From a bacterium (GTDB taxonomy: Bacteria > Patescibacteriota > Minisyncoccia > Phycocordibacterales > UBA9973), in NCBI GenBank assembly GCA_021831595.1, contig JAKBMK010000025.1, positions 1-61,113 of the forward strand: a DNA stretch of 61,113 nucleotides, given 5' to 3'. Positions 1,073 through 40,057 of the stretch are shown in pieces. Positions within the stretch are counted from its first letter, which is position 1; each line of letters opens with the position of its first letter. The notes beneath the pieces were generated by a model. It saw only the letters and a program-made list of their open reading frames with translations, was not told the origin of the DNA and did not search any database. The translations under genes and the position numbers were made by a program.

Positions 1073-1136
1073 GGGAGGCTGTGAAAGATTGGAGGGAGGG
1101 TGTGTGAGGAGGCATTTTTTATGTTATACTCATAGG

Positions 1137-1922
1137 ATGGAAACATTTTTAAACAATAAAAAAGTTAGCGTTTCGGTTTTTGTATTATTAATAATTATTT
1201 CGTGTTATTTCGTAGTTAAAACAGTAAGTGAAGTTCGAGATATTGATAACAAGGGCGACAAGCAAGTAAACACAATCACTGTTTCAGGTAAAGGAGAGGT
1301 GACAGCTGTTTCTGATATTGCTTCTTTGTATGTTAATTTAAACAAAGAAGGTAAGACAGCAAAAGAAGCTCAAGACTTGCTCAATACTGAAATTACAAAA
1401 GTTTTGAAATATTTGAAAGATCAAAAAATTGCTGATAAAGATATAAAATCTGAATACGGAGGACTTAACCCAAAGTATTCTTATGAACAACCTACCTGCT
1501 TCACATATCCTTGTCCTACAAGAGATCCAAAGATTATCGGATATACAGCATCACAGTCTATTACTATAAAGATACGTGAAGTTGATAGTGCAAGTGAGAT
1601 CCGCACAGGACTTGCTGGAGTAGGGGTGACAGATATAAGTGGTCCAACATTTGGAATAGATGATGAAGAAGGTTTCAAGGATCAAGCTCGCTCGAAAGCA
1701 ATTCTTGATGCAAGAGAAAAAGCTAAAGTTCTCGCAGGAGAATTGGGTGTCAGACTTGGTCATGTTGTAAGCTTCAATGAGAGTAACGGTGGAGGGTACC
1801 CTATGTACGCAGCAAAAGCAATGATGGCAGATAGTGTATCTGCTTCTGCTCCAGCTCCAACATTGCCAAAGGGGGAGAACAAGATTACTTCAGACGTGAA
1901 TATAACTTACGAGATTAAATAA
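1137..1922 (+). CDS. SIMPL/DUF541 domain protein
   Basis: N-terminal TM segment, then TITVSGKGEV, ARSKAILDAREKAKVLAGELGVRLG and GENKITSDVNITYEI. The start was moved to ATG 1137, just after a TATACT box. Confidence 0.88.
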   Translation: METFLNNKKVSVSVFVLLIIISCYFVVKTVSEVRDIDNKGDKQVNTITVSGKGEVTAVSDIASLYVNLNKEGKTAKEAQDLLNTEITKVLKYLKDQKIADKDIKSEYGGLNPKYSYEQPTCFTYPCPTRDPKIIGYTASQSITIKIREVDSASEIRTGLAGVGVTDISGPTFGIDDEEGFKDQARSKAILDAREKAKVLAGELGVRLGHVVSFNESNGGGYPMYAAKAMMADSVSASAPAPTLPKGENKITSDVNITYEIK

Positions 1923-24100: not shown

Positions 24101-24862
24101 GCCCAAAACATTGAATCATTTTTTATTCCTTATTTTGACAATAATAAAATTAAATTAGAAGATACATTAAAAAATACCAGAGCCACCATTTGTGTTCCAA
24201 GTGAATATTCTTTGAATGTTGTTAAAAAATATAATAAAAATGTCCAATTATTTAGGTATGGTTTTAATGATTTGTATGATAAAGAAATTGATATAAAAAA
24301 AGATATACAGTTTAGTATCATAGGAACGATTGAAGACAGAAAAGCTCAAGATATTTTTGTTGAAGCAATATTATTAATGCCAGAAAAATATCAAAAGAAA
24401 GCAAAATTTAATATTATAGGTAATGATAAAACTTGTCTATCTTTTTCTCAGAAATTAAAAGAAAAAACTAAAAAAATACCATCAGTTGTTTGGCACGGAT
24501 TAATTTTAGATCAGAATAAAAAAAAGAATTTATTCATAAAAACCTCAATTTTAGTTGTGATTTCTCGTGATGATTGTGCTCCGTTGGTGGTTACTGAGGG
24601 AGCAGTATTAATGAAGCCATCAATTATTAGTACAAACGTTGGAACTTGTTTTCCTTTTGATAATGGAAAAACTGGTTTTATTGTTGAAACTGGTAATATT
24701 AAACAGTTAGCAGAAACGATGATGAATATTATTGATAATCCATCTATATTAAATTCTATGGGTGAAGAAGCAAGAAAAAGATATTTAGAAACATCAACTA
24801 TTGATTTATTTAGAAATAAGATCTTATCTTTAATAAAAGAAAAAACGAATTTAAAAATTTAG
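21119..24862 (+). CDS. Multidomain methyltransferase - coiled coil - GT2 - GT2 - GT4 protein
   Basis: VELGTHYG...HIDGLHTYEAVKHD, ISIIVPVYNT...LLDHDD, ISIIIP...FYNDD and VIHELTITGAP...GTIEDRKAQ. Confidence 0.9.
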   Translation: MNWEYYNPKFEYEEIFEDLSWPWAGHKYFAYDLISNIKPKIIVELGTHYGTSLWSFSQAVKDQKLNTEINAIDTWKGDKHAGFYGEEIYETVKDIKNKFYSGVKINLIRKTFDEALSDFNDDSIDILHIDGLHTYEAVKHDFENWLPKVKNNGIIIFHDTVVSREDFGVYKLWKELKKTYQSIEFFHSYGLGVLFKDENNSIFGLKEELELHYAYLLEDIENGKIVKLFNDLNEKNKIIEKKNQEIESKESIIQKKDLEINSKIFEIEFMKSSRFWKIKTFYEKFKNPILKAIKLIKKAIVILKKDGLIIFTKKVINFILNYKTNRNIFLMPCLNVNNISNEIFNKQQNEFSKEEIKLQIKNFSKKPLISIIVPVYNTPPIWLRKAIDSLCNQYYENWEICAVDDFSTNDKTRLILKEYGKLDPRVKFIFLGENGGISNASNIALEMAKGEYVALLDHDDELTKDALFWVVKEINDNPTADFLYSDECKIDDTEERKLFDFFFKPDWSPEFLFNFMYTGHFTIYKKKLVNEVGNFRSEYDFSQDYDLALRCSEKAKNIVHIERVLYLWRAVDGSAANGGKDYARKTNIAALQDFAHRKGLLARATILPNANYLNIINNINKKISIIIPSDSIDNIIRSIENIIKKTNYPLFEVIVVCNSNIKNNLEQKYKQKNIIFKPYDKQFNFSDKCNQGAQKALGDILVFYNDDVVPINDDWLVKLIEYIDINGIGGISPKLLYEDGTVQYAGMTTNSLPFCGTFLHQKNESETMVNLLRNVSILSGACLAIKKSIFFEVGGFDSINTPAGHSDLDLSFKIRDAGYRCVYTPYSVLSHIGNHSWHIKKDKADIYVLSRWGKYISNDPYYTKSMRATYEGYLPEQFGIFSKQSEFFKKKFNVLIVIHELTITGAPIIAFDIAKAVLELGGYPVMYSYSDGPLRFELEKLNIPVIVNNIAKQDEFSFINFAKNFDVIIANTVVTYPAVHMIQDIVPTIWYIHEAQNIESFFIPYFDNNKIKLEDTLKNTRATICVPSEYSLNVVKKYNKNVQLFRYGFNDLYDKEIDIKKDIQFSIIGTIEDRKAQDIFVEAILLMPEKYQKKAKFNIIGNDKTCLSFSQKLKEKTKKIPSVVWHGLILDQNKKKNLFIKTSILVVISRDDCAPLVVTEGAVLMKPSIISTNVGTCFPFDNGKTGFIVETGNIKQLAETMMNIIDNPSILNSMGEEARKRYLETSTIDLFRNKILSLIKEKTNLKI

Positions 24863-24876
24863 ATAAAACAAAAACA

Positions 24877-24958
24877 TAGCAAGAATCGTTTTTGCTACAA
24901 CTTACTACAATTTTTGACATTTTGGGGGAGAAATGACTCGCAAGAACCGTTCTTGCGA
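24877..24958. repeat. REP family A copies upstream of RAYT-1
   Basis: Degenerate TAGCAAGAATCGTTTTTGCTA (24877-24897) and perfect TCGCAAGAACCGTTCTTGCGA (24938-24958). Confidence 0.85.
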
Positions 24959-24987
24959 AAGGAAAACGAGATTGATATAATTAAATT

Positions 24988-25674
24988 ATGTTGAGAAAAG
25001 ATCCATTTATTACTGGTGAGTACTATCATATATATAACAGAGGAATAGACAAAAGAAATATATTTAAACTAGAAAGAGATTATGAGAGATTCATGATGCT
25101 TTTGTATGTTTCTAATTCTACTAATGAAAATTCTTTACGATTAGATGATCTTTTAAATAAACAGCATAAAAGTTTTAAAGAAGTTTTGATTTTAGATAAA
25201 GGTAAGCCACTAGTTTCTATAGGTGCTTGGTGTCTTATGACCAACCATTTTCATTTATTAGTTAGGCAAGAGGTAGACGGAGGGATAACTAAATTTATGA
25301 GAAAAGTGGGGGTAGGGTATTCAATGTTTTTTAATATTAAATATCATAGGCAGGGAGCCTTGTTTGGGGGGCTCTTCAAATCTAAATTAATTGGTAAGAA
25401 TGATAATTATTTAAAAATGCTTTTGGCATATATTCATTTAAATTCACTTGAGATAAATTTCCCAGATTTAGAAAATAAAAAAGGGGAGTATAAAGAGGAT
25501 GAAATGAAAGAATTTTTGGATTCATATCGGTATTCTAGTTATAGGGATTATATGGGAATTAATAGAACAGAGAAGAGTATTTTAAACAGAGAATCTTTCC
25601 CGGAATATTTTCATACAGATCAATCCTTCATTGAATTTGTGGAGAATTTTTATCTTTATAAACAACAGCACTAA
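24988..25674 (+). CDS. REP-associated tyrosine transposase (RAYT-like Y1/HUH) #1
   Basis: YHIYNRG, WCLMTNHFHLL (HUH), YIHLN (catalytic Tyr) and YSSY. REPs flank it on both sides. Confidence 0.9.
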   Translation: MLRKDPFITGEYYHIYNRGIDKRNIFKLERDYERFMMLLYVSNSTNENSLRLDDLLNKQHKSFKEVLILDKGKPLVSIGAWCLMTNHFHLLVRQEVDGGITKFMRKVGVGYSMFFNIKYHRQGALFGGLFKSKLIGKNDNYLKMLLAYIHLNSLEINFPDLENKKGEYKEDEMKEFLDSYRYSSYRDYMGINRTEKSILNRESFPEYFHTDQSFIEFVENFYLYKQQH

Positions 25675-25890
25675 TCTTTCTAACCTTTCGCAAGAACCGT
25701 TCTTGCGACAAAAATCTTTCTAACCTTTCGCAAGAACCGTTCTTGCGACAAAGTTCTTGCGACAAATAAAAAGAAAAGGGCTCCTTAGGTAGTTAACCGT
25801 TCGGATCTCTCTTCGTATTGATATGGGTATTATATATCTTTGTGGTGCTACGGACTCGCAAGAACCGTTCTTGCGACAATCTTGCGACAA
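25673..25890. repeat. REP family A cluster downstream of RAYT-1
   Basis: A 40-bp tandem duplication (25673-25712 and 25713-25752) in which each unit contains TCGCAAGAACCGTTCTTGCGA, another copy at 25856-25876, and half copies. Confidence 0.9.
25768..25836 (-). ncRNA. Candidate small RNA, orphan copy of the NYN-linked motif
   Basis: Minus strand: TATAAT-N-ATATCAATACGAAGAGAGATCC...GGAGCCCTTTTCTTTTT, homologous to 29322-29391. Confidence 0.5.
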
Positions 25891-25940
25891 CAAAGGCAAG
25901 ACCTTTGCACGGACAGCAAATTGCAAAGGTCTTGCCTTTG
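25891..25940. repeat. REP doublet family B (left inverted copy)
   Basis: CAAAGG-CAAGA-CCTTTG ... CAAAGG-TCTTG-CCTTTG, the exact reverse complement of 27001-27050. Confidence 0.92.
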
Positions 25941-25946
25941 CGTCTA

Positions 25947-26906
25947 TTAAGTTTTTATTAGATAAGTTCTTCCTTTGAATATACGATACAGGAATATCAA
26001 GAAGTTGATGATGGATACTCCCACTACGTCCAAGAAAGATAAAGCCCAGCCGATGTAAGCAGGGAGGAAGAGCTTCTTGGTCTTGATAGACTTTTTGAAG
26101 TTTGATCTACTTGTTTTTGTATCTCCTCCTAAGAAATACATGATCCCAAGGCGGAAGTATCCTACGTGGACATAGTTGTATTTTGAATAAAGATCATAAT
26201 GCTTTTGGAAGACGTATTCGGCGTCTTTCACTTTTATCAGCTTGTCCTTTGATGCCTTTGTGATGTTATTCTCATGAAAATAATAGTTGAACAATGGCTC
26301 GTTTATAAAAGTTATATTGTAGCCAAGGCTCATGACCCGTATCCACATATCCCAATCCTCCGAATATTTCATTCGTTCGTCTCTCTTGCCAACAGCGTAG
26401 GCGACTTCGCTTTTCATTAGTACACTGCTGTTGCTGTATATTGGGTTCCTTAGCAGAATTTCTGGGATCGCGACTTTTTCATTGATAGGATTATAAATGC
26501 TAAAGCAGTTGCCTTTGTCATTTATCAAGTTAGCTCCGCAGGAGACAATGCAAAGCTTCTCGTCTTTGGATTCTTCAAAAGCTTTTAATTGTTTTGCCAG
26601 CTTCTCGGGTAGCCACTCGTCGTCGTGGTCTAAGAATGCGATGTACTGGCCCACGGCGCGCTCTACTCCTACATTTTTAGGAGTGGCGGGGCCACCGGAG
26701 TTTTGAGATGTTTGCAAGAGTTTGATCCGTGGATCTTGCCTGATGAATTCGCCGATCAATTCTGTCGTATTGTCAGTAGAGTGGTCGTCCACTATCAAGT
26801 ATTCCCAGTCTGTAAATGTTTGAGCGCGGACGCTCTCAACTGTCCTCTTTATGAAAAGGGAGCTGTTGTAAGTCGGTGTGATGATGGATACTTTAGGGTT
26901 GTTCAT
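25947..26906 (-). CDS. GT2 family glycosyltransferase
   Basis: VSIITPTYN, VDDHSTD, FLDHDDEW and SEDWDMW. Confidence 0.93.
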   Translation of the reverse strand: MNNPKVSIITPTYNSSLFIKRTVESVRAQTFTDWEYLIVDDHSTDNTTELIGEFIRQDPRIKLLQTSQNSGGPATPKNVGVERAVGQYIAFLDHDDEWLPEKLAKQLKAFEESKDEKLCIVSCGANLINDKGNCFSIYNPINEKVAIPEILLRNPIYSNSSVLMKSEVAYAVGKRDERMKYSEDWDMWIRVMSLGYNITFINEPLFNYYFHENNITKASKDKLIKVKDAEYVFQKHYDLYSKYNYVHVGYFRLGIMYFLGGDTKTSRSNFKKSIKTKKLFLPAYIGWALSFLDVVGVSIINFLIFLYRIFKGRTYLIKT

Positions 26907-27000
26907 TCTAGTGCGTTGTTGTTCTACTCATTCTTAATATTCTTTGGCAAACATATCAGCATTCTAGCATAAATAAAGGGCATACGGCAGGGTAAAGCCA

Positions 27001-27050
27001 CAAAGGCAAGACCTTTGCAATTTGCTGTCCGTGCAAAGGTCTTGCCTTTG
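27001..27050. repeat. REP doublet family B (right inverted copy)
   Basis: Exact 50-bp reverse complement of 25891-25940. Confidence 0.92.
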
Positions 27051-27082
27051 TGGGTTATTCTATTTGTATCAAAAGCTTGCCT

Positions 27083-27129
27083 TAATCGTATCATAATGAT
27101 ACGATTAGAGCATATAAATGATACGATTA
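27083..27129. promoter_or_regulatory. Palindromic operator upstream of the wHTH-Fic gene
   Basis: TAATCGTATCAT-A-ATGATACGATTA (27083-27107) plus a third half-site at 27118-27129. Confidence 0.65.
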
Positions 27130-27143
27130 AATATATGAGGGAT

Positions 27144-28187
27144 ATGAGTAAAAGACAAATTAATATATTAGAAAAGTTTCCAGAAGAAGGGAAGATTTCA
27201 TCTTCCGATATTTTAAAAATTTTAGGAGAGAAAGTGTCCTTAATTACGATCAAAAGAGATTTAGAGAGTTTGGTTGTACTAAAGTATTTAGAGAGAAAAG
27301 GAAAGGGTAGATCTACTGTATATGAAAAGACTACCTTAGGAATGTTGCTATCCCCAGTAGATGCTTCCAAGTATAACGCAGTAGACCCCGATGTTCGGAA
27401 TGGAAGAGATAGTTTTAATTTTTCTCTGTTTGAAAATTTTCCTAAAGATGTCTTCATGAGTGATGAAAAAGAATCTCTAGATAATGCGACAAAAAAATAT
27501 CAAAAAAATATTAAAAATATAAGTCAGACAGTACAGTTTAAAGAATTAGAGAGGTTTGTCATAGAACTGTCTTGGAAGTCTTCAAAAATTGAAGGGAACA
27601 CATACACCTTGCTAGATACAGAGAAGCTTATCCGTGAAGGCATTCCCGGAGAAGGACGTACCAAAGATGAAACGACGATGATACTTAATCATAAAAAAGC
27701 TTTTTCTTTTATTATGGATAATCTGGGTGACTTGCATAAAAATGGTGTCAACCTAAAATTCATAGAAAAAGTTCACGAATTACTGACTTCTGGACTAGGG
27801 GTTTCAAGGGGTATCAGGAATGGTTTAGTGGGTGTTATCGGTACTAAATACAAACCACTTGATAATAAGTATCAGATAAATGAAGCGCTAGAGACTCTTT
27901 ATAAGAGAGTGAATCAAATGCAGAATGTGTACAGTAAGGCTTTAACTCTACTTGTTGGAATTTCATATATCCAACCCTTTGAAGATGGGAACAAAAGGAC
28001 TGCTCGTTTGCTTTGCAATGCTATCCTTTTGTCTTTAAAGTGTGCTCCATTGTCGTATCGCAGTGTAGATGAGAATAATTATAGGGAATCCATTCTTGTT
28101 TTTTATGAGAAAAATTCTTTGGTGCCAATGAAAAAAATATTTATAGATCAATATATTTTTTCAACGGAGAACTACTTAGTTAAGTAG
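27144..28187 (+). CDS. wHTH plus Fic domain protein
   Basis: TIKRDLESL...KGKGRSTVY, SWKSSKIEGN and the Fic-like motif QPFEDGNKRTAR. The start is at 27135 or 27144. Confidence 0.88.
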   Translation: MSKRQINILEKFPEEGKISSSDILKILGEKVSLITIKRDLESLVVLKYLERKGKGRSTVYEKTTLGMLLSPVDASKYNAVDPDVRNGRDSFNFSLFENFPKDVFMSDEKESLDNATKKYQKNIKNISQTVQFKELERFVIELSWKSSKIEGNTYTLLDTEKLIREGIPGEGRTKDETTMILNHKKAFSFIMDNLGDLHKNGVNLKFIEKVHELLTSGLGVSRGIRNGLVGVIGTKYKPLDNKYQINEALETLYKRVNQMQNVYSKALTLLVGISYIQPFEDGNKRTARLLCNAILLSLKCAPLSYRSVDENNYRESILVFYEKNSLVPMKKIFIDQYIFSTENYLVK

Positions 28188-28254
28188 GAAATATAATTTG
28201 GCTAATAATACAACAGGCGGAGGCGTAAGCCTCCGCCTGTTGTATATGTATTTT

Positions 28255-28461
28255 CTAATGCGTAAAGATTATTATTATCGTCCTTAGTATTATCCCAAAG
28301 TCGATGAAGATATTTCTATTTTTTATATAATACAAATCATACTCAAATTTTTCTTTTGAGCTCTCGATCGTGTTTGCATAGCGGTACTTGATCTGGGCCC
28401 AGCCGGTGAATCCTGGGCGGATGATATGGCGGAGGTTGTAGTGGGGGATGGTCTCGGACAT
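28255..28461 (-). pseudogene. Duplicated 3' end of the sugar transferase gene
   Basis: The last 64 aa match those of 29421-30716 at all but one residue. Confidence 0.9.
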
Positions 28462-28519
28462 ATGGGTATTCTAGCATAAATAAGGGGGATACGGCAGGGC
28501 AGAGCAGGGTAGCACTCTG

Positions 28520-28712
28520 CAAAGGTCTTGCCTTTGTCGATGCGCAAGGACGGTCCTTGCGATTAATGAAGCAGGGCAAAGCTTTGCTTTGCCCTGCCGG
28601 TCTCTGTATTAACTAATGTGGCATTTTTGTTAATACTATGTTTCTAGTGTAAACCAAAACGCCATGTTGGTTTACACTTTGTCGATGCGCAAGGACCGTC
28701 CTTGCGCATCGA
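28520..28712. repeat. Cluster of REP families B and C plus other palindromes
   Basis: B at 28520-28536, C at 28543-28561 and 28682-28712, and other hairpins at 28571-28597 and 28646-28678. Confidence 0.88.
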
Positions 28713-28814
28713 TATGAGCGTATATATCAGCCTTGTTGGTAAAATTATACAATGGTTTTATGTTTTGTAAATTTTTTGTTTGTCTTTTTGTTTTTTATTT
28801 GAGATAATATAAAT

Positions 28815-29309
28815 ATGGATATGGATGTGAAAAAAGTAAATATTTATATAGATGGGAACAATCTTTATCGTTCAGCAAAAGAGCTCGGTTATGAAATAGA
28901 TTATAAAAAGTTTAGAGTGTGGTTATCTCAAAAATATAATACAAAAAATATATTTCTTTTTATTGGATATTTAGAAAATAGGAAAGATTTTTATAATCAT
29001 TTGAAAAATTGTGGTTTTAATTTGATATTTAAGGAAGCTATTCTTCATGAAGGAAATATTAAAGGTAATTGTGACGCTGAATTAGTATTAAAATCAGTTG
29101 ATGATTATCATTTGAAAAACTTTGATAAATTTATATTGATTTCAAATGATGGTGATTTTGGATGTTTAATAGAATTTTTAATAAATAAAAATTGTTTTGA
29201 TATTATACTATCACCTGATATAAGTAAATGTTCTATATTGTTAAGAAATAAAACAAATAAGATTTTATATTTAAACGAAATTTATAAGAAATTTTCTAAA
29301 AGCAAGTAA
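28815..29309 (+). CDS. NYN domain (LabA/DUF88, PIN-like) nuclease
   Basis: YIDGNNL, KGNCDAELV and LISNDGDF acidic motifs. Confidence 0.9.
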   Translation: MDMDVKKVNIYIDGNNLYRSAKELGYEIDYKKFRVWLSQKYNTKNIFLFIGYLENRKDFYNHLKNCGFNLIFKEAILHEGNIKGNCDAELVLKSVDDYHLKNFDKFILISNDGDFGCLIEFLINKNCFDIILSPDISKCSILLRNKTNKILYLNEIYKKFSKSK

Positions 29310-29321
29310 ATTACTTATCCC

Positions 29322-29391
29322 AAAAGAAAAAGCTCCCGGCATGGGCGCACCCATACAAGGATCTCTTTCATAATGATATAGGTATTATATA
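29322..29391 (-). ncRNA. Candidate small RNA convergent on the NYN gene
   Basis: Minus strand: TATAAT, then GAAAGAGATCC..ATGGG-TGCG-CCCAT..GGAGCTTTTTCTTTT. Confidence 0.55.
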
Positions 29392-29420
29392 CCAACGTGA
29401 CACCAGTGTCAAGACTATTT

Positions 29421-30716
29421 CTAATGCGTAAAGATTATTATTATCGTTCGTAATATTATTCCGAAATCGATGAAGATATTTCTGTTCTTTATATAATATA
29501 AATCGTATTCAAACTTTTCTTTTGAATCTTCGATTGTATTTGCATAGCGGTATTTTATTTGAGCCCAGCCGGTGAATCCTGGGCGGATGATGTGGCGGAG
29601 ATTGTAGTGGGGGATCTTGCCTTCGAGAGGAGTGACGAATTCTGGGCGCTCTGGACGGGGACCGACGAGCGAAAGATCGCCACGGAGTATATTTATCATT
29701 TGCGGAATTTCGTCGATGTGGAGCTTGCGGATGACTCTGCCGACCCGAGTGACACGAGGGTCGGATGCTCCTGTGGCCCAGACGGCGCCATCCTTCTCGG
29801 CGTTTATCGTCATAGAGCGAAGCTTGTAAAGCCTGAATATATTGCCATTGAGTCCAACTCTATTTTGAGTATAGAAGATTGGACCTTTGTCGTTTAGATA
29901 TATGAACACTCCACTGACAAGCAATATAGGTGAGCAGAGTACTAGTATGATGATAGCGAACAACTTATTCACAATAAACGTCATTATATTGTAGGCGACG
30001 TCTTTCTTTATATTTATATTCTCTACAACGAAAGACATATCGATATACCCAACAGGAATTTTGAATAGATATTTCTCATAAGCTTTGGCTGTGTCGATGA
30101 TGGAGCATCCTTGCTTGTATAGTTCCAAAATCTTTTCGTCTGGAGAGTCTATTTTCTTGTCTAGGATTATCACCAAATTTTTTGTAATTTTCTCTACTGA
30201 CTTCATCTCATTCATACTGTCTAGATGACTTACGATCGAGAGCCCGATCTGAGGATTTGCTTTTATCGTATTCTCTAATTCTTTCAGATAAGTAGAAGTC
30301 CCGACGAGAATTACCGGCTGTGTTATGCCCTTGGCGAAAAGGGTATAGATAGTTCTACGAAAGAAGAAAGAAAAGAAACCGAACAGAACGACCTGGATCA
30401 AGAGGTTCATCTTTGGATAAATACCGAATATAGGGGCTAGGTAGAATAGGATCAAGCCGACGACGAAGGAGGAGGCCAGGGCTAGGGCCCATCTCTTCAT
30501 ATAGGGGATAGTAGGCTTTATCGTCACCAAGTCATATAGTCCAAATATATAGAAAATAAGCACCCAGATGAGATATAGGAGGAGGAATGGCACAGTATGA
30601 CTGTCGATAGCAGAAAGGTACTGGTCGGGAGAGAATCTTATGAAAATAAGCAATATAAAAGAGATGAGAAAAGATAGAAAATCTCCGAATATGATAAGCC
30701 AAGTTCTATTCGTCAT
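29421..30716 (-). CDS. Polyprenyl-phosphate sugar-1-phosphate transferase (WcaJ/WbaP-like)
   Basis: FRLYKLRSM, DPRVTRVGRVIRKLHIDEIPQ, SLVGPRPE and PGFTGWAQ. Confidence 0.95.
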   Translation of the reverse strand: MTNRTWLIIFGDFLSFLISFILLIFIRFSPDQYLSAIDSHTVPFLLLYLIWVLIFYIFGLYDLVTIKPTIPYMKRWALALASSFVVGLILFYLAPIFGIYPKMNLLIQVVLFGFFSFFFRRTIYTLFAKGITQPVILVGTSTYLKELENTIKANPQIGLSIVSHLDSMNEMKSVEKITKNLVIILDKKIDSPDEKILELYKQGCSIIDTAKAYEKYLFKIPVGYIDMSFVVENINIKKDVAYNIMTFIVNKLFAIIILVLCSPILLVSGVFIYLNDKGPIFYTQNRVGLNGNIFRLYKLRSMTINAEKDGAVWATGASDPRVTRVGRVIRKLHIDEIPQMINILRGDLSLVGPRPERPEFVTPLEGKIPHYNLRHIIRPGFTGWAQIKYRYANTIEDSKEKFEYDLYYIKNRNIFIDFGIILRTIIIIFTH

Positions 30717-30822
30717 ATGAAGACATTCTAGCACAAAAGGCGGGAATATAGCACCGTTTTGACATTTTGGGATAGAAGGAATATTCTCTATATGAAATCA
30801 AACATTCAAATAAACTCAAGAT

Positions 30823-31170
30823 ATGGAAAGAGATGAAAAAGAACAGAGCGACGAGATTTACCGTGGGTTCATGGAAACAGTTGAAGCCATGGTAAAAGCT
30901 TCGAAAGGCAAGCTCACTCTAGTCATAGAAGAGGACGAACACTTCCTACAGCTTCTTTCTGAAAGAGAGATGCATAGCGTAGAACATTTCGTTCGTCTTT
31001 CCCTAAAAGACAAGATGGGTCGGGCTCTGCCGGAATTCTATCTGATGGTCAATTCATATCAGTACGATTGTCCCAAGGAAGTGGCAGCAGGTAAGGCTCG
31101 TCTAAAAGAGCTCGGCAATGTCATCCTCGATGACAAGTATCAACTAAGCTGGAACCAGCTTTTCCGTTAA
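30823..31170 (+). CDS. Hypothetical protein
   Basis: 115-aa ORF with an upstream TTGACA promoter-like site and a downstream hairpin. Confidence 0.6.
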   Translation: MERDEKEQSDEIYRGFMETVEAMVKASKGKLTLVIEEDEHFLQLLSEREMHSVEHFVRLSLKDKMGRALPEFYLMVNSYQYDCPKEVAAGKARLKELGNVILDDKYQLSWNQLFR

Positions 31171-36177: not shown

Positions 36178-36480
36178 ATACGAATCACGATGTTAATGAA
36201 CAAAAATCACCAAGTAAAGCGGTTAAAGTAAGACCAATTGGTTTCGCTTTGTCCGCCAAAAGGCGGATTTTTCTTTTAAAGACATCGAGAATGATATTTG
36301 AAAACTGAATGCTGTTCCGACTCACTGTTATCCTTTATTTTAGAGGGTCTTTTGAATCGAGTCGGAAACAGAACACAACAATAATAGATGTATAAGCACA
36401 GAAGGAAGCGGTTCCTGAGAGTGTTTACATCGGATCATGTTTTGCCCTAGAGACAGAGCATGATCGTTTTTAAATTTCCT

Positions 36481-39945
<3,465 letters not shown>

Positions 39946-40057
39946 GGAAATTTGGAAATTATTATTGTTGTGTCAGCATTCAGTTTTCAGATATTATTTG
40001 TATCTGAGAAAGGTCGCCTTCGCGTAAAGCTACGGCGAACCGAAGTTGAAAATTTTG

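Follow-up and report, generated by a model that had tools for sequence, protein, structure and literature searches.

A conserved pair of an NYN gene and a small RNA element

The 61,113-nt contig JAKBMK010000025.1 of a bacterium from the phylum Patescibacteriota (assembly GCA_021831595.1), which we refer to as the window, carries a gene for an NYN-domain protein and, facing its 3' end from the opposite strand, a small structured RNA element. Gene and element are a conserved, self-contained pair of two genes in about 630 bp, as is apparent from their anatomy, conservation and covariation, from the strict linkage of the element to NYN genes, and from the presence or absence of the whole pair between strains. 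We infer transcription of the element, toxicity of the NYN protein, an antidote role for the RNA and the route by which it may pair; that the RNA is, by whichever route, the obligatory antidote or negative regulator of NYN is a reading to which we give a probability of about 0.6.

The element lies within the 111-nt gap that separates the NYN gene (+) from a convergent sugar-transferase gene (-). An initial annotation, made from the sequence alone, had placed a small structured RNA here, convergent on the NYN gene, and the -10 box TATAAT, both stems (outer and inner), the loop UGCG and the run of U are all found where it put them; a perfect -35 box had escaped it. The complete promoter matches the sigma-70 consensus at 12 of 12 positions and scores highest among 30 promoter-like sites in 24500-31000. 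It begins 9 nt past the stop codon of the sugar-transferase gene and is directed at the hairpin. Homologous elements retain TTGAC or TTGCx at a spacing of 17-18 nt, often together with TGnTATAAT. A 9-mer resembling a DnaA box (TTATCCACA, at most 1 mismatch, either strand) occupies a fixed place just upstream of the -35 box in 10 of 55 element loci (L042, L079, L080, L084, L087, L091, L096, L097, L099 and L107), the window copy not being among them; the background is 44 in 2177 random 50-nt windows of element loci.

With its start placed 7 nt past the -10 box, the predicted RNA consists of a 9-nt 5' tail (AUCAUUAUG), an interrupted 18-bp hairpin with the UNCG-type loop UGCG, and a U tract. From its base, the hairpin comprises 7 A-U-rich pairs, an A/G mismatch, 4 G-C pairs, the inner stem and the loop. 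The minus-strand fold has an energy of -25.7 kcal/mol (z -3.9; none of 200 shuffles equals it) compared with -14.3 kcal/mol for the plus strand. The hairpin is GC-rich and has an A tract in front; on the RNA strand, T occupies on average 4.3 of the 6 nt that follow the stem. Both tracts of a two-way intrinsic terminator, A and U, are provided by the lower stem, GAAAAAG/CUUUUUC, and the hairpin therefore also serves as the terminator of the NYN gene. Behaviour as an ordinary terminator had been named beforehand as an outcome that would speak against a dedicated RNA; the hairpin does form a bidirectional intrinsic terminator, but the conserved promoter and 5' tail go beyond what a terminator needs.

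We described the element by a covariance model, R1, of 72 positions and 18 pairs, built from 6 sequences. When 46 homologues are aligned to the covariance model, 96.4% of the paired cells are compatible with pairing and both-sided changes occur at 12 of the 18 pairs, in 121 cells, the alignment being fitted to the model so that pair counts lean towards the structure. None of 500 shuffles matches any of the covariation measures, and sliding the 3' partners gives only 41-65% pairing. A U-G wobble is retained in 34 of the 46 homologues and a second G-U in 16; the wobbles favour the small-RNA strand because the same positions become mismatches on the other strand. In 39 of the 46, the small-RNA strand has the more stable fold (mean -23.8 versus -19.8 kcal/mol). 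To judge from these alignments, selection acts on the structure that the small RNA forms on its own strand. The tail, AUCACYAYGAAA, and the lower stem hardly vary across the order, the inner stem varies freely, and a UNCG loop occurs in at least 31 of the 46 homologues. Rfam 15 yields no match at E<=1 in 29200-29500, and at gathering score the window contains rRNA and tRNA matches only.

The linkage between the element and NYN genes was followed in both directions. A BLAST search with the 121-nt region against 60 relatives returned full-length homologues in 4 genomes of the genus and 2 of other families, all 6 convergent on an open reading frame (ORF) of 159-175 aa, which is identified as NYN by Pfam in 4 cases and by an NYN profile in the other two (G056, G022). 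The weak BLAST matches (L005-L020) mostly cover the T-rich tail or the -10 box only, and the five that were examined (L006, L007, L008, L011, L019) contain no element. Model R1 matches in 39 of 93 genomes of the genus (E<=0.01), in 47 of 151 genomes of the order, from 45 of 132 genera (E<=0.001), and in 9 of 151 genomes of an even sample of the phylum, the source genome included (E<=1e-4).

The NYN profile, made from 15 module NYN proteins and searched in the 93 genomes of the genus, gives a bimodal score distribution: 39 module-type matches of 75-236 bits in 30 genomes, and a housekeeping class of 43-57 bits with about one member per genome. One of the 39 module-type genes runs off its contig; all 38 testable ones have the element convergent at the 3' end (35 by an R1 match abutting or overlapping on the opposite strand, 3 by eye), so that no module-type NYN without an element was found among them. 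In the reverse direction, a convergent NYN gene is present in the genus at 26 of 30 best-match loci and at 10 of 20 further low-scoring loci. At twelve of the 14 NYN-less loci the promoter is missing as well, and these are ordinary terminators; of the remaining two, one is an orphan (L070) and one is L036, where NYN is reduced to its last 27 codons. NYN is present at 24 of 29 loci in the order, 4 of these genes being split or truncated, and at 6 of 8 in the phylum, where 2 of the 6 are split. The element is thus kept beside truncated or split NYN genes (L036, L083, L084, L091, L098, L108, L114) and also occurs as an orphan (a second copy in the window, termed copy B, a copy on contig C8 of the source assembly, L077 and L110). 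The element outlives NYN and the reverse was never seen, which is the signature expected if the RNA protects against the protein. On the other side of the element the flank varies: Bac_transf in the window, and DUF5661, an unknown gene or a ClpX/HslU-like AAA gene elsewhere. With this linkage, compensatory changes and no Rfam match, the proposal of an undescribed module of NYN and a non-coding RNA is supported. A complete module is also found on a predicted viral contig of IMG/VR (L120, 8.7 kb), with NYN at 1081-1476 (+) and the element at 1499-1570 (-) (76.6 bits).

The NYN protein scores 58.2 bits against PF01936 (cut-off 24.2), and its homologues score 58-68 bits. Among the 15 module NYN proteins, which share 29-62% identity, D13, N16, K83-G84-N85-D87 and D112-G113-D114 are invariant; among them are all four acidic residues (D13, D87, D112, D114) of the active site shared by PIN-like domains. 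The AlphaFold model (pLDDT 91.7) has its best Foldseek matches in the Protein Data Bank (PDB) with 2QIP (TM 0.78) and the NYN domain of MARF1 (TM 0.65), and KHNYN or ZC3H12 structures are also among the matches. No NCBIfam family matches the protein, and PADLOC finds it with a generic 'LabA-like NYN' model (51.6 bits) that assigns no named defence system. The module NYN proteins form their own clade, apart from the housekeeping NYN that is present in nearly every genome of the genus and adjoins pnp in the source genome. Domain, fold and acidic residues are common to the module NYN and the NYN.COG1432/LabA-like proteins (PF01936; 2QIP). That group is listed as 'function unknown' in the 2017 classification of PIN-like domains, the excerpted text of which names no RNA partner for it (PMC5499597), whereas the module NYN proteins are a separate clade with an RNA element.

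The pair is variable between strains. In DNA run X7, from the same study as a probable source sample, a contig joins position 28537 to position 29419 with 5 other letters between them; X7 depth is 0 or near 0 over 28553-29371, with the flanks covered, and a second X7 contig also breaks at 29418. The whole block of NYN gene and RNA gene with its promoter is missing from this related strain. A 277-nt spacer (28538-28814) is missing with it, although in other genomes the conserved module does not include this spacer; it is hairpin-rich, with two GCGCAAGGACNGTCCTTGCGC palindromes and the inverted pairs GCAGGGCAAAGC/GCTTTGCCCTGC and GTGTAAACCAA/TTGGTTTACAC.

Subtypes and orphan elements

The source assembly (807 kb, 33 contigs, 95% complete) contains three copies of the element, one of which faces NYN. 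The initial annotation had pointed to a homologue at 25768-25836. This is a real copy (copy B), but it is an orphan of a divergent subtype, without an NYN gene of its own here, and the subtype has its own NYN clade elsewhere: B-subtype elements each face their own NYN in G004, G086, G101, G011, G075, G002, G009 and G006. They are characterized by an internal loop with conserved CCGAA...UAAGG and by a small apical hairpin that covaries. Further subtypes exist, each associated with an NYN clade of its own. The A-type RNA goes with the clade of the window gene, and the B type with NYN proteins that are only 29-36% identical to the window NYN. Where a genome has two modules, these differ in subtype (G006, G011, G101, G017, G023, G086). 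Two modules, or a module and an orphan, of differing subtypes also occur in tandem within about 2 kb (L044/L060, G011:C12:2794-5018; L037, G110:C2:121546-122193).

The third copy lies on contig C8 (41235-41304, 38 bits). It faces a RhuM-family gene (PADLOC candidate PDC-S05; C8:40232-41304; L078, L116), whose stop codon overlaps the element, and has the promoter TTGACA-17-TATACT. We considered that the element might be a general 3'-end cassette for toxic genes and rejected this: the two testable RhuM homologues, those of G009 and G089, lack an element at the 3' end (with filters off), and the homologue in G006 ends at a contig end. The RhuM pairing is not conserved, and the C8 copy is therefore an orphan that provides no evidence of a general cassette. 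A tblastn search with the 15 module NYN proteins found nothing in 24801-26000 and no NYN remnant beside copy B, the C8 copy or the orphan of G066:C33.

Copy B adjoins a gene for a transposase resembling the REP-associated tyrosine transposases (RAYT; REP, repetitive extragenic palindrome), together with REP-like palindromes. This Y1 (IS200-type) gene (24988-25674, +) matches Pfam Y1_Tnp at 7e-6 and the NCBIfam model of REP-associated tyrosine transposases below its cut-off. The palindromes (GCAAGAACCGTTCTTGC; 24940, 25690, 25730, 25858, 28544) number 9 in the genome, 6 of them on the contig, and a REP/RAYT system is unusual for a 0.8-Mb genome. An orphan B element in G066 (L077, G066:C33:24000-26400; element 2255-2324, -) likewise stands beside a gene for a 227-aa Y1 transposase-like protein (1471-2154, -), in the opposite relative orientation to that in the window. 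Loss of the NYN gene may be connected with the insertion of RAYT.

How the RNA may act on NYN

As we picture it, the two genes would form a compact module that serves addiction or defence. A leaderless mRNA would encode the 164-aa NYN metallonuclease, the presumed toxin, and the near-consensus promoter on the opposite strand would make an RNA of about 56 nt, barely more than the 9-nt tail and the terminator hairpin. The extended -10 box ends 5-8 nt ahead of the start codon in 27 of 31 modules (6 nt before ATG 28815 in the window), which is so close that the NYN mRNA is probably leaderless, and in a leaderless mRNA only the 3' end is open to antisense control. Since both transcription units meet at one bidirectional terminator, the small RNA and the 3' end of the NYN mRNA would be complementary to each other. 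By the antisense route, which we put forward tentatively and would not rate as high as even odds, an abundant small RNA would pair with this 3' end and cleavage by RNase III would destabilize the message. In modules where the stop codon falls within the duplex, cleavage would leave a non-stop mRNA whose product is tagged through transfer-messenger RNA (tmRNA). The NYN level would then stay low for as long as the module persists and is transcribed. The genome contains genes for both RNase III and tmRNA, and across 32 modules the NYN stop codon lies between 22 nt inside and 11 nt outside the end of the model, inside it in 22. The antisense route is placed first because the layout is closest to that of type I pairs that share a terminator.

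The nearest such layout is par of the Enterococcus plasmid pAD1, a type I system in which the Fst mRNA (RNA I) and the antitoxin RNA II are, as in the module, made from convergent promoters that share a bidirectional factor-independent terminator. According to excerpted text of PMC7472228, complementary stem-loops begin the pairing of RNA I with RNA II, and RNA II, with about 40 nt, is very small, like the predicted RNA of the module. The par toxin is a 33-aa membrane peptide, whereas the module encodes a 164-aa NYN nuclease on a predicted leaderless mRNA; par has the DRa and DRb repeats at the start codon, whereas the module is without a second pairing site; and par has a U-turn recognition loop where the module has a 4-nt UNCG loop. 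The loop is not of the kind suited to loop-loop contact, a YUNR U-turn of 6-7 nt; among the loops only UUCG fits YUNR, in 8 of 46 homologues (14 counting 6 gap rows). In Bacillus subtilis, the antitoxins RatA, SR4, SR5 and SR6 pair at the 3' ends of their toxin mRNAs, which RNase III cleaves, and the terminator loop of SR4 initiates contact (PMC6562991, excerpted text). These pairs (txpA/RatA, bsrG/SR4, bsrE/SR5, yonT/SR6) share 100-140 bp with the target, compared with about 45-55 nt in the module; SR4 and SR5 have four stem-loops and the module RNA a single hairpin, and the toxins are small hydrophobic peptides whereas the candidate toxin of the module is a soluble nuclease. The antisense overlap typical of type I is present at the DNA level, where convergent promoters flank one terminator. 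The small hydrophobic toxin typical of type I is replaced by the soluble 164-aa NYN protein, for which the nucleases RalR and SymE are precedents. SymE is a nuclease toxin of Escherichia coli that is controlled by the small RNA SymR, which overlaps the 5' end of the toxin gene rather than the 3' end as in the module. RalR, also from E. coli, is a nuclease toxin held down by the small RNA RalA (PMC4041452, excerpted text). RalA is encoded in trans with 16 nt of complementarity, whereas the module RNA overlaps the 3' end of NYN, and the folds of both RalR and SymE are unrelated to NYN.

Type III systems (ToxIN, CptIN, TenpIN) combine an endoribonuclease toxin with a structured RNA antitoxin in small mobile modules that are often linked to phage defence. 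Their antitoxins consist of tandem repeats upstream of the toxin gene and on the same strand, with a terminator between the two, and are processed by the toxin. None of these layout features is present in the module. The analogy with type III drawn in the initial annotation does not fit the layout in consequence: the element consists of one unit, which follows the gene and lies on the other strand, and direct reading, with no dedicated repeat search, reveals no tandem repeats.

Several observations weigh against an antisense antidote. The 4-nt UNCG loop and two very stable hairpins make a loop-loop start of the par or SR4 kind unlikely. The 5' tail is not complementary to the start of the NYN mRNA (RNAduplex, 31 pairs: cognate -4.9 versus shuffled -5.5 kcal/mol); with the first 45 nt of the mRNA as target, the mean z is +0.27 and 1 of 31 pairs falls below -1.64. 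A second pairing site as in par was therefore discarded, the tail showing no pairing signal with the mRNA start. The tail and the internal mismatches are conserved in sequence across the order, though cis-antisense pairing needs no such conservation, and the small RNA looks stable, unlike typical labile antitoxins. Any gene needs a bidirectional terminator, so the linkage could in part be that of the gene to its own terminator. Among RNA runs, X16 (5% share) is the sole one with related sequence: two of its contigs, from a relative, cover 28837-29014 and 29036-29395 (about 95% and 92% alike) and then diverge, but they carry no strand, start or end, and the library may contain DNA.

The UNCG loop, the missing second site and the excess of sequence conservation favour direct binding to the protein. 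The RNA would then be an antidote similar in function to type III, its hairpin with conserved tail and mismatches binding NYN as an inhibitor or pseudo-substrate, with one subtype per clade, which we consider rather unlikely on the whole. Across families in which NYN identity falls to 30-45%, conservation extends to the tail, the lower stem, the positions of the A/G and U/C mismatches and the CGUC that follows the loop. RNA subtypes follow NYN clades, and two-module genomes carry two of them, although such a match is also expected from co-inheritance of linked DNA. The weakly paired apical region of the B type would be disfavoured in a plain terminator, and orphan elements are intact without a complementary mRNA. 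The layout, with no repeats and the RNA downstream on the opposite strand, is nevertheless unlike any known type III system. A bolder version, which we find doubtful, would make the module a new class of toxin-antitoxin or defence system, in which a single, non-repeated 56-nt hairpin RNA binds and silences NYN as a pseudo-substrate, matched subtypes prevent cross-talk, and the toxin mRNA is leaderless, the class being spread in bacteria of the Candidate Phyla Radiation (CPR) and at least one predicted virus.

It is less probable that there is no antidote at all, and that the hairpin is a terminator travelling with a mobile NYN gene, the promoter giving a by-product RNA or acting on DNA, as an insulator or through collision of RNA polymerases, to prevent read-through between the inserted gene and its neighbours. 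With its A tract, its GC hairpin capped by a UNCG loop and its U tract, the element does have the make-up of a canonical two-way terminator, low-scoring R1 matches that lack a promoter are simple terminators of unrelated neighbouring genes (L047, L050, L051, L055, L058, L065-L067, L069, L071, L072), and the contexts of insertion are varied, so that insulation would help. A near-consensus promoter about 15 nt before the terminator in every module across the phylum is, however, hardly a by-product; the 9-nt tail is conserved in sequence, the G-U wobbles favour the small-RNA strand over the NYN strand, and elements survive the loss or breakage of NYN, when nothing is left to terminate. The survival of the RNA without NYN, never the reverse, also bears on the idea that NYN requires the RNA for its activity, as cofactor, guide or processed substrate (for example, by trimming the 5' tail from the helix), since joint decay would be expected in that case. 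This idea agrees with the strict linkage, with the conserved single-stranded 5' tail beside a long helix, and with the RNA-processing enzymes among NYN domains, MARF1 and KHNYN or ZC3H12 being among the fold matches; PRORP, a protein-only RNase P with an NYN domain, trims pre-tRNA leaders (PMC10941002, in part). At 9 nt, however, the tail does not have the length that a useful guide needs, and we regard the idea as improbable. Lastly, the element could encode a micro-peptide, or be a transposon end or attachment site that is read as a DNA hairpin, both of which we consider very improbable. The window has an 18-codon frame from an AUG in the tail, yet the corresponding triplet is AUG in only 16 of 46 homologues (ACG in 26, AAG in 3, AAC in 1) and hence no start codon, and the frame ends after 6 codons in G006 and G008; the micro-peptide was accordingly rejected. 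Two orphan B-type elements adjoin Y1 (IS200-like, RAYT-type) transposase genes, yet these genes are opposite in orientation relative to the element in the two cases, the copies within a genome are diverged subtypes, and no terminal repeats or target duplications were seen.

Genomic setting and implications

The features of the locus are collected in Table 1. Genes for Fic (SoFic-like in PADLOC), Mrr_N and HNH proteins are among the neighbours of the modules, a company typical of accessory or defence regions. In the window, a Fic/DOC-domain gene (27015-28187, +; SoFic/PDC-S04-like in PADLOC) lies between two glycosyltransferase genes upstream of the module, and an ORF of 177 aa on the other strand (26924-27457), with no Pfam match, overlaps its start. 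The 23S rRNA match at 36480-39947 (+) spans 3468 nt compared with a model of 2925 positions, so that the gene probably has one or more insertions; there is no 16S rRNA gene in the window.

Table 1. Coordinates of the module and of related features in the window.
Feature	Position	Strand	Details
Predicted NYN promoter	28780..28808	+	-35 TTGTCT, 17-nt spacer, extended -10 TGaGATAAT; 9/12 match, TG present
NYN-domain gene, 164 aa, putative nuclease/toxin	28815..29309	+	Pfam PF01936, E 1.7e-15
Small RNA promoter	29384..29412	-	TTGACA 29412-29407, 17 nt, TATAAT 29389-29384
Predicted 56-nt small RNA	29322..29377	-	Fold and covariation; start A29377 and end predicted
Hairpin of small RNA	29369-29326	-	Outer stem GAAAGAGATCC (29369-29359) with GGGAGCTTTTTC (29337-29326)
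Inner hairpin	29354-29341	-	ATGGG-TGCG-CCCAT; from sequence
T run (U tract)	29325-29322	-	12 nt from NYN stop codon 29307-29309
Sugar-transferase gene	29421-30734	-	Bac_transf, E 1.1e-59
Strain-variable block	28538..29418		NYN gene, small RNA gene with promoter, and 277-nt upstream spacer with REP-like palindromes; strain comparison
Orphan B-subtype element	25767..25836	-	-10 TATAAT, tail AUCAAUACG, hairpin with larger apical loop region, U tract; R1 score 36.4 bits

No description of an NYN gene with a convergent small RNA was found in the full-text literature, subscription-only papers and supplements being outside the scope of the search. The NYN/LabA-like proteins are a large family of 'function unknown' (PMC5499597, excerpted text), one clade of which now gains a testable partner and a likely role as an RNA-controlled toxin. 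The module is small and self-contained and can therefore be tested in E. coli, where one experiment would separate the antisense route from binding to the protein, and covariance model R1 is a ready marker for annotating NYN-RNA modules. If our reading is correct, the module would extend the repertoire of RNA-antitoxin systems by a nuclease with a new fold and by a minimal RNA of one hairpin, and would represent RNA-based control in CPR bacteria, the small RNAs and selfish or defence modules of which are almost unstudied.
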